A stretch of DNA of 64,000 bases from Escherichia coli. Lineage in GTDB: Bacteria; Pseudomonadota; Gammaproteobacteria; Enterobacterales; Enterobacteriaceae. The position numbers were made by a program, and so were the translations under genes. Of the stretch, positions 52,344-56,152 are shown piece after piece. Location: assembly GCF_009931435.1 (NCBI RefSeq), contig NZ_CP043414.1. One strand, 5' to 3'. The notes under the pieces were generated by a model. That model had not been told where the DNA came from and made no database searches. It worked only from the letters and a program-made list of their open reading frames with translations. The number at the start of each line of letters is the position of its first letter. Positions within the stretch are counted from its first letter, which is position 1.

Positions 52344-52778
52344 TCAGGGCAAGATTACGAAAGCCCGCTCCCCGCAAGGACTGACGCGAGAAATGACATG
52401 AATCGCTCCCCTGCGGCGACTCTTGTCATAAGAGTGCCGGAGCGTTTTTCCATCAATTACAATGACGTCTTTATCATCTGAAGAATGGCAGTCACGCATC
52501 CAGTTAATAAAGCACTCGTGAAATTTTTCAGGACTGATACAGGATACAACTCTGGCAATGGTATCGTGAACAGGAATACCATTTTCAAAATCACCATATT
52601 GCTTCAAAAAATCGAGATGAGTTTCCCCAAAATCCTCTATATCTTCCCAATCTTCTGCACCAGAAATAACGGCACAAATAGTCAACAGTAGAATATCTGA
52701 CAATTTATGATCCACTTTCCAGGCTTGTCTGTAATCGGGGGTAATAGAAATATGTTCCATCAATTTTTTAAGTTCCAT
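52344..52778 (-). mobile_element. yhhI: Truncated H-repeat (ISAs1-family) transposase fragment, N-terminal 130-140 aa only
   Basis: [57 protein letters not shown]... matches the H-rpt protein N-terminus as I remember it, but the reading frame diverges and stops after about residue 130. Confidence 0.6.
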
Positions 52779-52863
52779 TTTGTTCTCCTTAATTATGTAA
52801 GGAGTATTTGATCATGTATAAGCAATGGAAAACAGCTTTAGGTAATGAGGAATATCTCAATTT

Positions 52864-53121
52864 TTAAACATAAAATGCGAATTGTTTAGTACAAAAAAGC
52901 AGCGTTACGTGATCTTTCCCTGATTCAATTGCCAATCTAACAGCGTCTTGCCCCCCTCTTAACTGTAATACTCTGGCAGATGAAATCCTTTTCAAGGAAT
53001 TGCGATCATCAAGTAAGCGAAATAATTCATCATCATTTAGTTTCTTACATTGATTGTATAAACCATACTCTTTACTTGCCTTTCTTTTCTGGTATATATT
53101 CGACATTGTAGGAATATCCAT
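52864..53121 (-). CDS. Small hypothetical protein in the Rhs accessory region
   Basis: 85 aa ORF; position corresponds to the small gene between rhsB and the H-repeat in E. coli; no recognisable motif. Confidence 0.35.
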   Translation of the reverse strand: MDIPTMSNIYQKRKASKEYGLYNQCKKLNDDELFRLLDDRNSLKRISSARVLQLRGGQDAVRLAIESGKDHVTLLFCTKQFAFYV

Positions 53122-53210
53122 AAAGACTATCTTTTTCTATCGTTTGACTGTCTGGAGTCCTCCACCTACTCTGCCATCAGCGCACACGATGTTTGTTTAT
53201 CCTTACATAC

Positions 53211-53609
53211 TTATTTTCCGTGGCCAAAATTTAGAATTCTCCCATCATTTTTGCCTATTTCTATAATAAAAACCCCACCAGCAATTTGTTCTGATTGAAT
53301 GGTGCCTTCAACAATCCAACTTATTGGTAATTCCTTGATTTTGTATGGTTTTTCTTCTTCTGCGGCATCATGCCCATAACGATTCTTAACATATATCTCA
53401 GCTAATTCCAATGCTATGGATTTATTTTTAACCAAATTTCTAACGGTATATTTCCCCTCACTTTCATACTTGCGCATTATTATAATATTATTACACTGCG
53501 CCCATGTGTTGTATGTAAAAACAAACAAAGATACAATTACACAGGTTCTGAATAATATTTTCTTACACGTTGCCATGTATTCTGCAAACATTAGGCAATC
53601 CTTTTCCAT
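53211..53609 (-). CDS. Small secreted protein, candidate orphan Rhs immunity protein
   Basis: About 120-132 aa with an N-terminal hydrophobic signal-like segment (KKILFRTCVIVSLFVFTYNTWAQC); C-terminal half is paralogous to the ORF at 55112-55339. True start is probably internal (53576 or 53591). Confidence 0.45.
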   Translation of the reverse strand: MEKDCLMFAEYMATCKKILFRTCVIVSLFVFTYNTWAQCNNIIIMRKYESEGKYTVRNLVKNKSIALELAEIYVKNRYGHDAAEEEKPYKIKELPISWIVEGTIQSEQIAGGVFIIEIGKNDGRILNFGHGK

Positions 53610-53928
53610 TTGTTATATCTTTCCCATGATTATCTATTGCTTTAAAATTTTCACCTATTGACCTTGAATTACTAAAATCACTTCCAGTGAAATCTGAGTT
53701 ATTCAGAATAGCATTCATCAGAGCCGCATTGCGAAAGACAGCATTTCTAGTTGATGTATGTTGAATCATTACATTTCTTAAATGAGTTTTTTCAAATTTC
53801 GCCCCATCAAGACAATAACCATTGAGGATGGCACGATGTAGATTCATCCCGCTAAAATCATATCCAGCAAGAGTGGTACTATCTATCTCAAGAAATTTAT
53901 TGGTTATTAAAAATGCGATTCTTATCAT
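53563..53928 (-). CDS. Pentapeptide-repeat protein
   Basis: About 121 aa from ATG preceded by GGAGG (MIRIAFLITNK...); at least 13 consecutive pentapeptide repeats with hydrophobic residue every fifth position (FSGMN LHRAI LNGYC LDGAK FEKTH LRNVM ... LMNAI LNNSD FTGSD FSNSR). Confidence 0.55.
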   Translation of the reverse strand: MIRIAFLITNKFLEIDSTTLAGYDFSGMNLHRAILNGYCLDGAKFEKTHLRNVMIQHTSTRNAVFRNAALMNAILNNSDFTGSDFSNSRSIGENFKAIDNHGKDITNGKGLPNVCRIHGNV

Positions 53929-53991
53929 CTGTTCCTCCAATCATCTAACTCCGGAAAATTTGAAAACCAGAACCTCGCTTAGGGGGTAGGA

Positions 53992-54075
53992 TTATTCTGC
54001 GTACCACGCTGTTGTCCTTTCCGTGCTGATAAGGGCCAGCAAGTTATCCGGTTTGCTTCGTTGAGTTCACCACGC
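53992..54075 (-). pseudogene. Rhs core-end remnant
   Basis: Minus-strand translation ...LLALISTERTTAWYAE* parallels RhsB ...[17 protein letters not shown]; nucleotide similarity to 56840-56880; ends in a stop before the DPxGL motif. Confidence 0.45.
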
Positions 54076-54158
54076 TAAAGCTCCGTGTCCACATAACCTA
54101 GGTCGGAGGCATGACCTTCTCTGGTTCGTCCCATCTAAAATGTCTATAAAGAACATGG

Positions 54159-54560
54159 TTATTCAATTATTTTTTCTTTGAGTTTATTCTCAATCCAGCT
54201 GTCTTTATACCTGATGAAAATTTGACACTCACCAATATTATCAATGTCTCCAGAATTTGTATTTGGAATTTGTCCAACTGCAACTATAGTTGATTCAAAA
54301 TATTCAACATTGACATTATCTGTAATTATTGAAATTATATAATCATCTGGAATAGAGCCATTAGGAGTTATATTGAAGAAACTAACACCTGAAAATACAA
54401 AATAACCATCTTCTAAGTCTTCATTATCATAAAAATTCCATTCTGTTGTACCATAGGCTATCCTTGAGATTAAATTAACCTGAATTCTAATTTGTTTACT
54501 CCATAAATCAAATTCAATTTTTTTTATTGCTCGATCACCAAGATATATTCTATCAAACAT
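54159..54560 (-). CDS. Low-GC hypothetical protein, candidate orphan immunity protein
   Basis: 133 aa ORF, AT-rich, immediately downstream of an Rhs core fragment; no recognisable motif. Confidence 0.4.
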   Translation of the reverse strand: MFDRIYLGDRAIKKIEFDLWSKQIRIQVNLISRIAYGTTEWNFYDNEDLEDGYFVFSGVSFFNITPNGSIPDDYIISIITDNVNVEYFESTIVAVGQIPNTNSGDIDNIGECQIFIRYKDSWIENKLKEKIIE

Positions 54561-54609
54561 ATTACCCCCCTATTCTAAAAATACTCAGGCATTCCGCACA
54601 TTATATCAG

Positions 54610-54775
54610 CCTCATCTTGATTGCTTCTCGTTTCCCGATACGGCGGCGCGGGGAGTCATAAAGGTAAGAAATTTCCAGCAGTACGGCGTCCTATTGTTCA
54701 CGGCGGTAATGCACCAGCCAGTATTGGCTATCGTAGTGATAACCGTGTAACCTGCCGCCGCATCGCGTATCTAAT
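54610..54775 (-). pseudogene. Rhs core (YD-repeat) internal remnant, frameshifted
   Basis: Two minus-strand frames give GYHYDSQYWLVHYRREQ* and LLEISYLYDSPRRRIGKRE, paralleling Rhs[41 protein letters not shown]. Confidence 0.45.
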
Positions 54776-55111
54776 GTTCATTCTTTTCCATAAACCGTCC
54801 GTACACATTGTGATAGTAAAAATACAATACATCTTTGCTGATGCGGTTATTCTGCTGCATGTGGGGAGCGCCGAATACTGCTCCCGGTATGGCCAGTAAT
54901 TACTATTTAGTACGACGTTAGGGGGAGTCAATTAATCTCACAGATACTTCAAGTAACAGATGAAAATCGCTCCTGAAATGAAAAAAGAAATTTTTTTGAA
55001 TGTGTTCCTGTCAAATCAAGTGGTTTTTTCGTCGATATGTAGAGTCATATTGTAAACAAAATTGTTACGAAACACACCTTGGTAAAATATTTGAATCGAC
55101 TGTACAGTGGA

Positions 55112-55339
55112 TTATTTTGTGTGTATTACATTCAACACTTGCCCATCTTTTTTCGCTATTAGTATTGTAAAATTTCCTCCTAACGTCTTCGGTTGTTTTC
55201 CCTCGATTTTCCAACAATTATTGTCATCTGTAATACTATATGGTTTCTGAAATTCTGCTTTTTCTTTCCCGTATACATATTTAATGTAAACATATGATAA
55301 TTCCAAAGCCATTTCACGACTATTTACTAAAATTTCCAC
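55112..55339 (-). CDS. Truncated paralog of the 53211-53609 small protein
   Basis: 75 aa; ALELSYVYIKYVYGKEKAEFQKPYSI...W.IEG...GG.F.I.I.K.DG aligns with the C-terminal half of the 132 aa ORF; lacks the signal-like N-terminus. Confidence 0.35.
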   Translation of the reverse strand: MEILVNSREMALELSYVYIKYVYGKEKAEFQKPYSITDDNNCWKIEGKQPKTLGGNFTILIAKKDGQVLNVIHTK

Positions 55340-55582
55340 TGGATTTTCTTTTCCAGATACTTATTATGATATTGTAAACAATATCATAATAAGTAATATT
55401 AGTGAGTTTCTCGTGTTCTACACCTATCGAATCTCAAAAGTTGAGGGTAAAACATTACATTCAGAATATATGATATTCCTACCATCGGAATCCATTTTTC
55501 CAAATCGACCTTCTGGTGTGCCTGGATATCCATTAAGAACATGTTTTTCCGAATGGTTAATTTATTTTCTCAGGAAGATGTT

Positions 55583-56152
55583 TTATTTTTCTTCACTACG
55601 AAGCAGTTCATGCTGTATTTTTGTTAAACATTCGTAAGACTCATCTTTGTTCGGGAGATGTGCTGTCATTCGAGCATAAGTTGGCTTCTCATCTTTAAAA
55701 TATTTAACCATGATTGAATTATCAAGGACTGCCAACAACTGAGCTGGATCACTGCTCTTTTTTTGATAGATACCCGCTCTTATATAACTTCTAAACCGAT
55801 CGCCGAGAAACGCCGTTTTTTCTGCTGTATTTATCAACTCCTGCAACGTTCCTTTGATGGCATGATTTTCATTAAGGCGTAGTGACCCAACGCGAATTAA
55901 GAGTCTCGCCCCGCTTGGTGTGAATTTATTATTTTTACATGTACCCAGTTCTGTTTGCCAATAATACTCACCGATGTCCTCATTCTGATACCATCTCCAC
56001 ATGGCTTTATTATTTAAGACAGGAAACGCGGAAAAAATAGTACCCTTAGCGAAAATAGTAAAACAATCATGATCTTTAGCTTGTATTTCGCAATCAGCTA
56101 TAGCACCAAAACTAACAAATATCATCAGCAAAAAGAACAAAAATCTTTTCAT
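55583..56152 (-). CDS. Candidate cognate immunity protein for the RhsB C-terminal toxin (signal peptide)
   Basis: 189 aa; start ATG overlaps the rhsB stop (ATGA); N-terminal signal peptide [21 protein letters not shown]-rich. Confidence 0.6.

Follow-up and report, generated by a model that had tools for sequence, protein, structure and literature searches.

A degraded array of displaced Rhs cassettes, partly shared with rhsC, lies downstream of rhsB in Escherichia coli

We analyzed the rhsB locus of Escherichia coli in a 64,000-nucleotide stretch of DNA (NZ_CP043414.1; hereafter, the window), covering the last ~14 kb of it (about 50-64 kb). Positions 52345-56152, on the minus strand, are the accessory array of this locus, and the array is a degraded derivative of the displaced-cassette (orphan) arrays of Rhs systems. 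It very probably consists of five former Rhs toxin/immunity cassettes stacked downstream of the cassette in use (the rhsB tip plus ybfC), with block exchange between loci and deletion of the toxins. Both the C-terminal displacement model (Jackson et al. 2009, BMC Genomics 10:584; PMC2935791) and rhs-CT/rhsI modules that are orphans (Poole et al. 2011, PLoS Genet 7:e1002217; PMC3150448) have been described. As applied here, a new cassette would recombine into the conserved rhs core, pushing the old tip and its immunity gene downstream. Secondary deletions would then strip away nearly all of each displaced toxin along with its core fragment, leaving for each cassette 10-44 codons of the toxin 3' end and, after them, the immunity gene in whole or in part. 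The proximal 3.66 kb would have moved between loci ready-made, onto older distal layers already resident at rhsB.

The rhsB locus makes up the final 14 kb of the window on the minus strand, in the order nikDE-nikR, rhsB, a 3.8-kb AT-rich stretch, and yhhJ-rbbA on the plus strand; we identified the locus and named its genes from the RefSeq neighbors. The array is co-oriented with the full-length rhsB gene and immediately downstream of it (rhsB, 60348..56149; array, 56152..52923; all minus strand), and its G+C content is 35%, compared to 62% in the rhs core and 47% in the rest of the window. An initial annotation, made from the sequence alone, had listed a truncated H-repeat, two Rhs core remnants, and two paralogous small proteins between yhhJ and rhsB; all of them are present, with some boundaries adjusted below. 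The rhsB product is a full-length Rhs protein of 1,399 amino acids (Pfam RHS_repeat, DUF6531, and RHS; NCBIfam RHS_core), with its DPIGL motif at 56674-56688 and, by sequence match, a 174-amino-acid C-terminal tip of the K-12 ybfO type (56152-56673). No further DPxGL motif or complete tip was found downstream of rhsB, just 3' toxin stubs of 10-44 codons. We call the array a degraded derivative because its orphan core fragments do not continue through the PxxxxDPxGL motif into an alternative tip.

The displacement reading is supported by the finding that, for every immunity gene in the stack, an intact cognate toxin is present in another E. coli strain. Intact toxin/immunity pairs were found elsewhere for all five orphans: for the degraded Imm-NTF2-2 copy (NTF2-2) at comparison locus L013, for the DUF6258 gene at L005, for the pentapeptide gene at L008, for yhhH at K-12 rhsB, and for yibA at K-12 rhsA. 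In three of the five (L008 and the two K-12 loci) the pair is attached to a full-length rhs gene. The successive cassette displacement proposed in the initial annotation thus stands insofar as the small genes occupy immunity positions and have cognate pairs elsewhere, but the proximal 3.66 kb is one block shared with rhsC. Its suggestion that the retained genes are orphan immunity candidates holds for five modules but not for ybfC, which is cognate to the resident tip. The cognate toxins that it described as absent from the window are indeed nowhere complete, although each has left its last 10-44 codons. When the small proteins were searched against immunity families, as that annotation had recommended, PF15631 was matched twice, and PF19772 and pentapeptide repeats were matched as well.

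The layer nearest the resident cassette begins with a 44-codon 3' stub of a Tox-JAB-2/DUF4329 Rhs toxin (55427..55561, minus strand, from alignment to L013), followed by an Imm-NTF2-2 immunity pseudogene (55112..55414, minus strand). The segment 55561..55100 aligns without gaps to L013 2134..2595 at 89.4% identity, and L013 encodes an intact Rhs C-terminal region with PF14220 (DUF4329/Tox-JAB-2), then a 100-amino-acid Imm-NTF2-2 protein with a signal-like N-terminal sequence. The rhs gene of L013 is cut by a contig end, so this locus contributes an intact toxin/immunity pair and does not cover a full-length rhs. Searching a large protein database with the 45-amino-acid peptide upstream of the NTF2-2 copy returned two tiny open reading frames (ORFs) only; we assigned the peptide as the end of a DUF4329 toxin because of the context of the full-length immunity homolog in L013. 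The pseudogene matches PF15631 over 55115-55360 (E value, 1.1e-20; 74 bits; model positions 1-68 of 68), and this 68-position domain lies complete within the remaining frame of 75-82 amino acids (55112-55339/55360). Alignment of 11 loci showed that its former start codon is now ACG (55412-55414) and that two in-frame TAA codons interrupt the signal-peptide codons. Full-length, 100-amino-acid relatives exist (P0008 and P0009); in the protein database the orphan copy appears as variants of 75, 91, and 115 amino acids, each damaged at one end, whereas the 100-amino-acid form goes with an intact toxin. The NTF2-2 piece is present in 848 genomes; in 844 of them the match extends over 80% or more of the same 483-bp stretch, and a more complete toxin was seen beside none of the sampled E. 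coli copies. Pairing of Tox-JAB-2 with Imm-NTF2-2, and of Ntox34 with Imm-HEAT, was published in the 2012 polymorphic-toxin catalogue (PMC3482391). Together with the genomic pairing here, this makes Imm-NTF2-2 a putative neutralizer of Tox-JAB-2/DUF4329 toxins.

Next comes the second of the two core remnants, which the initial annotation had placed at 54610-54775 and called frameshifted. The remnant is real (tblastn/blastx E values, 1.7e-11 to 6.6e-11), but an upstream frame had been missed, and its extent is approximately 54628..54860 (minus strand), matching RhsB residues 926-1004 (78 codons; equivalent to core residues 923-1004). It shares 57% and 40% amino acid identity with RhsB in two frames and contains one in-frame stop and one frameshift. 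Against each of three E. coli core lineages the identity was 40-57%, with none closer than the others as a source, and the G+C content is ~44%; given this equal distance, it appears to be an old or foreign relic. At about 54632 it is joined to a 3' stub (54578..54632, minus strand, identified by match to L005) comprising the final 16 codons (...SNQDEADIMCGMPEYF) of the DUF6258-cognate toxin. The DUF6258 gene itself, in immunity position, is an intact ORF of 133 amino acids (54159..54560, minus strand; PF19772; E value, 2.3e-25; 89.7 bits against a gathering cut-off of 25 bits). The stretch 54632..53993 is 95.2% identical to L005 7001..7642, an orphan of strain W13-16 in which an intact toxin (6156-7058) immediately precedes DUF6258. 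As an orphan fragment, L005 offers an intact toxin/immunity pair but no full-length rhs, and its toxin has no Pfam, NCBIfam, or PDB sequence match. Beyond it lies core remnant 1 (...LALISTERTTAWYAE*), for which the initially proposed limits (53992-54075) were ~35 bp too long: the homology covers 48 bp at 53993-54040 (minus strand), with 97.9% identity to the K-12 rhsC core and 85% identity to the resident rhsB core. It continues into a full core end and tip in L005 (7589-7874), and in E. coli B it reaches 20 bp further along the core (74 bp in total); it is the 5' start of a former orphan core fragment. The similarity of both remnants to Rhs cores, which had been suggested on inspection, is significant when tested by alignment (E values, 1.7e-17 for remnant 1 and 1.7e-11 for remnant 2).

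Beyond remnant 1 lies an 11-codon 3' stub (NFPELDDWRNR*; 53925..53961, minus strand) of a ParB/Srx-like Rhs toxin, recognized from the L008 match and its translation; 53961..53644 is 95.6% identical to L008 7001..7318. In L008, at an rhsE locus, the corresponding pentapeptide-repeat immunity module is intact, with its toxin on a full-length rhs. The L008 toxin has no Pfam, NCBIfam, or PDB sequence match, and fold evidence points to a ParB/sulfiredoxin-like fold. In the window, the stub is followed by a chimeric ORF (53563..53940, minus strand; Pfam Pentapeptide; E value, 1e-10). Its 5' part is the first 95 of 161 codons of the pentapeptide-repeat immunity gene (94% identity to residues 1-96 of the L008 protein), with an ATG at 53926-53928 preceded by GGAGG. 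Its 3' part is the last 28 codons of a K-12-type RhsB toxin (53563-53649; 86% identity to the K-12 RhsB C terminus), fused in frame at a common G-x-N-F motif. The window therefore holds residues 1-95 plus a foreign 28-codon tail in place of a full-length, 161-amino-acid pentapeptide-repeat protein after its toxin. The ratio of nonsynonymous to synonymous polymorphism (pN/pS) of the chimera is 1.84 versus the L002 type. In other strains, then, a pentapeptide-repeat (DNA-mimic type) immunity protein is paired with an uncatalogued Rhs toxin of ParB/sulfiredoxin fold, a pairing not in the 2012 polymorphic-toxin catalogue (PMC3482391).

The fourth immunity gene is an intact ortholog of yhhH encoding an Imm-NTF2-2 protein of 132 amino acids (53211..53609, minus strand; PF15631; E value, 1.9e-24; 86 bits). 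Its product is 87% identical to K-12 YhhH, which sits after a DUF4329 tip, and by this correspondence the gene would be the orphan immunity gene for the K-12-type RhsB Tox-JAB-2 toxin. The two small proteins had been described as paralogous, and they are: both exceed the PF15631 gathering cut-off of 26 bits, and the product of 53211-53609 is 42% identical over 74 amino acids to that of 55112-55339 (E value, 7e-17). They are old paralogs with different specificities, not products of a recent duplication. The fifth module (52923..53158, minus strand; 94.9% identity to K-12 rhsA-yibA, L018 5286..5519) retains the last ~10 codons of a K-12-type RhsA toxin (53127-53158) and the first 66 codons of yibA (Imm-HEAT). 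It equals the K-12 pseudogene yrhC less a further 163 bp, and its ORF (52864-53121) reads through into the adjoining H-repeat. The NCBIfam YibA model PRK09687 scores 71.6 bits against a curated cut-off of 275, over profile positions 1-66 of 285, so the piece is a fragment.

The array has been exchanged in large part as a unit. From 57654 to 53993, that is, through the 3' end of the core, the tip, ybfC, the NTF2-2 piece, remnant 2, DUF6258, and remnant 1, the window shows one contiguous 3,665-bp match (97.2%) to rhsC of E. coli B. From 60349 to 54134 it matches O157:H7 rhsC over 6,218 bp (96.7%), and a wild-bird isolate and O121 show the same order of the proximal block at rhsC. Because it is shared as one block with the rhsC loci of other strains, the proximal part (three layers plus the active tip) appears to have been exchanged between rhsC and rhsB ready-made rather than built up at rhsB. 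The distal layers (the pentapeptide piece, yhhH, the yibA piece, and the H-repeat) appear to be older rhsB residents. K-12 keeps a stage in which the toxin cognate to yhhH is the active tip. At the place of a deletion in the window, strains of the L002 type still have yibA in full, together with an orphan rhs and a Sel1 gene. If instead the layers had been added singly at this rhsB locus, with the newest beside the core, K-12 rhsB (tip, yhhH, yibA fragment, H-repeat) would fit as an earlier state, and such in situ displacement is the published model (PMC2935791). We consider this quite unlikely, since three of the five orphan layers and the active tip form a contiguous block that is 97% identical at rhsC of E. 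coli B, O157, the wild-bird isolate, and O121. In addition, ~600 of the ~875 genomes with the DUF6258 module lack the full rhsB-locus array (a figure obtained by subtraction, with rhsC placement confirmed in few sampled loci only).

Comparison with complete genomes places the array among its relatives. The nearest, strain 2020CK-00188 (L001), matches collinearly over 60400 to 52392 with 98.8% identity, and the array proper (52923-56152, 3.2 kb) differs from it at 6 positions only. At least 80% of a 4.1-kb array query is held in one place by 272 of 5,426 complete E. coli genomes (~5%), and the DUF6258 module is found in 875 of the 5,426. No complete genome gave a single-piece match to the exact arrangement in the window, with the yibA|H-repeat junction and the 760-bp deletion described below.

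Several points weigh against the reading of a block-exchanged stack of displaced cassettes. The block may have passed from rhsC to rhsB or the reverse: sliding identity of the rhsB core against K-12 rhsB, rhsC, ybfO, O157 rhsC, and others gave no clean recombination breakpoint, the core being mosaic. Our survey of ORF integrity covers about ten loci. Finally, promoter-like sites (17 versus 16.3 expected) and terminator-like sites (3 versus 2.4) were not enriched over shuffled sequence.

The array might alternatively be a selected island of poly-immunity, in which orphan immunity genes are kept because they defend against Rhs toxins carried by E. coli competitors, and the loss of toxins is an adaptation. 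Consistent with this, more is left of the immunity gene than of the toxin in each of the five modules, which is suggestive only as a sign of maintenance; the DUF6258 and yhhH ORFs are intact here, and matching toxins circulate in E. coli. However, DUF6258 is frameshifted in five of nine sampled loci and yhhH in three of five, the latter by a 4-nucleotide deletion (L002, L010, and L012). Changes in the orphans are mostly nonsynonymous, with nonsynonymous:synonymous counts of 5:0 for DUF6258, 7:1 for the pentapeptide chimera, and about 11:2.5 for the NTF2-2 copy (summed over comparisons that are not independent). Nonsynonymous differences thus equal or exceed synonymous ones in the orphan genes, compared to a pN/pS of 0.25-0.34 in ybfC. 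Start codon and signal peptide are both lost from the NTF2-2 copy, the pentapeptide gene is truncated to 59%, and yibA is truncated to 23%. The initial annotation had let its proposal depend on the small ORFs being intact in related strains, which is partly not the case, given these frameshifts and the damage to NTF2-2, pentapeptide, and yibA. We therefore find the poly-immunity interpretation doubtful. A further proposal, that the array arose by repeated, selected removal of orphan toxins with immunity and its translation signals kept, and is not neutral debris, is suggested by the lack of a toxin domain in five of five modules, which still have the toxin 3' end plus an immunity gene that is either whole or kept in its 5' part; this, too, is unlikely in our view. 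The orphan immunity genes appear to be only partly maintained: intact yhhH and DUF6258 may still protect against neighbors with matching toxins. The presumed pseudogenes are the H-repeat, the two core remnants, the pentapeptide chimera, and what is left of the NTF2-2 and yibA genes. In DUF6258, an A tract (~54522-54529; gene positions ~29-36, codons 11-13) is A8 and in frame in the window, L001, L005, L009, and L011, and A7, causing the frameshift, in E. coli B, O157, L002, L010, and L012, strains that are otherwise 2-7% diverged; the A7/A8 change may be recurrent slippage.

Orphan tips could also serve as a silent reservoir from which the main rhs gene later acquires tips by recombination, as has been shown for orphan rhs in Salmonella. 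The resident tip does correspond to the orphan ybfO of K-12 (97.3%), and therefore orphan and active states interconvert within the species. The orphans in this window, though, keep neither a DPxGL motif nor a complete toxin domain, only the 10-44 codon stubs, and what core homology remains is confined to remnant 1 (48 bp, with 85% identity to the resident core) and to a relic of 57% identity. Such a role is very improbable here, and because none of them is complete, no orphan toxin should be open to reactivation. We also considered whether the array might be chance ORFs in AT-rich, horizontally acquired DNA unrelated to Rhs, as its 35% G+C content and many short ORFs on both strands would allow. 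This notion is next to untenable, being refuted by Pfam matches well above gathering cut-offs, significant core homology, and a syntenic intact module elsewhere for every piece.

The block-exchanged stack resembles published Rhs displacement arrays in being on the same strand as, and directly downstream of, an rhs gene of full length, as well as in being AT-rich with core fragments and genes in immunity position; it differs in that no displaced tip is intact, each being reduced to its 3' end. Evidence of new tips coming from other loci or of exchange within a genome was scarce in the study of Jackson et al., whereas the window contains a composite block common to rhsB and rhsC. The distal part is like the K-12 rhsB region (rhsB-yhhH-yrhC-yhhI), with yhhH (87% amino acid identity), a yibA fragment corresponding to yrhC, and an H-repeat abutting yhhJ. 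In K-12, however, the core carries a Tox-JAB-2 tip and the H-repeat is full length, while in the window another 3.7 kb of cassettes is inserted, the yibA fragment is shorter by a further 163 bp, and the H-repeat carries its 760-bp deletion. The rhsC arrays of K-12 (ybfO-ybfC), E. coli B, and O157:H7 share the tip, ybfC, the NTF2-2 piece, remnant 2, and DUF6258 with the window, in the same order and at 97% identity, but they lie at another locus (kdp-ybfA side), and the tip that is active in the window is an orphan in K-12 and B.

In the type VI secretion clusters of Vibrio cholerae, sequential effector displacement has reportedly left orphan immunity genes behind the active effector/immunity pair (Kirchberger et al. 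2017, Sci Rep 7:45133). The effector family and the recombination substrate differ from those in the window, where most orphans decay rather than being conserved.

As the mechanism is published and the pieces are annotated in RefSeq (as YbfC, NTF2 fold immunity protein, DUF6258, pentapeptide pseudogenes, YbbC/YhhH family, a partial "lyase," and ISAs1 transposase), the feature is not new; it is well known for E. coli rhs loci and ordinary. The departures from the published picture, namely, that all tips are cut to stubs and that a composite block is common to two loci, are matters of degree. Its value lies in showing, in a clearly resolved case, how an rhs accessory region is built up, with ready-made blocks exchanged and deletions removing toxins, and it corrects the assumption that such arrays record a series of locus-specific events. 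Of specialist interest are the DUF6258 A7/A8 tract, the pentapeptide/ParB-like pair, the signal peptides of Imm-NTF2-2 proteins, and a quasipalindrome mutation; the last two are described below.

The resident cassette differs from the orphans in its state of preservation. The ybfC gene (55583..56152, minus strand; 189 amino acids; named YbfC by RefSeq) overlaps the rhsB stop codon with its start (ATGA) and is intact in eight of nine sampled loci, and its low pN/pS (given above) indicates purifying selection. It is the working, cognate immunity gene of the resident tip, not an orphan, and would protect the cell from its own RhsB. The segment 57654..55544 is 97.3% identical to the orphan pair ybfO-ybfC at the K-12 rhsC locus. 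The tip alone is 99.6% identical across rhsB and rhsC loci of distant strains whose cores are ~95% identical, which suggests recent spread. It contains three Cys residues and is proline rich, and neither it nor YbfC has a Pfam, NCBIfam, or PDB sequence match. By analogy with homologs, RhsB would be delivered by a type VI secretion system.

In O157:H7 strain 493/89 (L007 5748-6318), ybfC is frameshifted while a full-length Rhs with the same tip looks intact. If active and expressed, the toxin would then lack its immunity gene in this strain.

We also observed signal-peptide-like N termini on YhhH (53211-53609; ...NTWA|QC), the full-length second Imm-NTF2-2 protein (L013 2281-2583; ...SHSTFG|RE), and YbfC (55583-56152; ...GAIA|DC). 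Judged from sequence, these starts suggest periplasmic immunity proteins, a predicted location that sits uneasily with DUF4329 being an RNase, the reading quoted in PMC7216683.

At its distal end the array abuts an H-repeat (ISEc1/ISAs1 family; 52345..52922, minus strand), which had been described as a truncated transposase fragment. Its 144-amino-acid ORF (52344-52778) is indeed a fragment of an ISAs1 transposase (NF033564, E value of 3.3e-39; DDE_Tnp_1_assoc, 1.3e-33), and profile searches found only the N-terminal DDE_Tnp_1_assoc and no DDE domain. The loss, however, is an internal 760-bp deletion at 52392|52393 (L001 6954|6193) rather than a truncation of an end, with both element ends kept (52922..52392 and 52391..52345). 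Over 530 bp (52392-52922), this allele and that of L001 differ at 15 positions, against 6 in the adjacent 3.2-kb array. The same 760-bp deletion is present in L002-type strains, whose deletion allele the window matches. Given this divergence and this match, a separate recombination at this end seems indicated, in which the H-repeat was probably replaced from another copy. An Rfam search of 51500-57000 matched no RNA family.

Within the NTF2-2 pseudogene lies a perfect hairpin (55357..55396, not assigned to a strand), ACTTATTATGATATTG-TTTA-CAATATCATAATAAGT, with 16-bp arms and a 4-nucleotide loop. Substitutions at 55362, 55364, and 55366, which account for three of the six array differences from L001, turn a quasipalindrome into this perfect hairpin and lower the predicted DNA fold energy from -5.1 to -13 kcal/mol. 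They are the exact changes that a template switch onto the other arm should produce, and the TAA TAA in the NTF2-2 gene results from them. The clustered changes thus bear the signature of a natural, quasipalindrome-templated template-switch mutation. Among 845 other genomes holding this stretch, the change was present in one, TUM13936, at the rhsC locus and with a different flanking single-nucleotide polymorphism.

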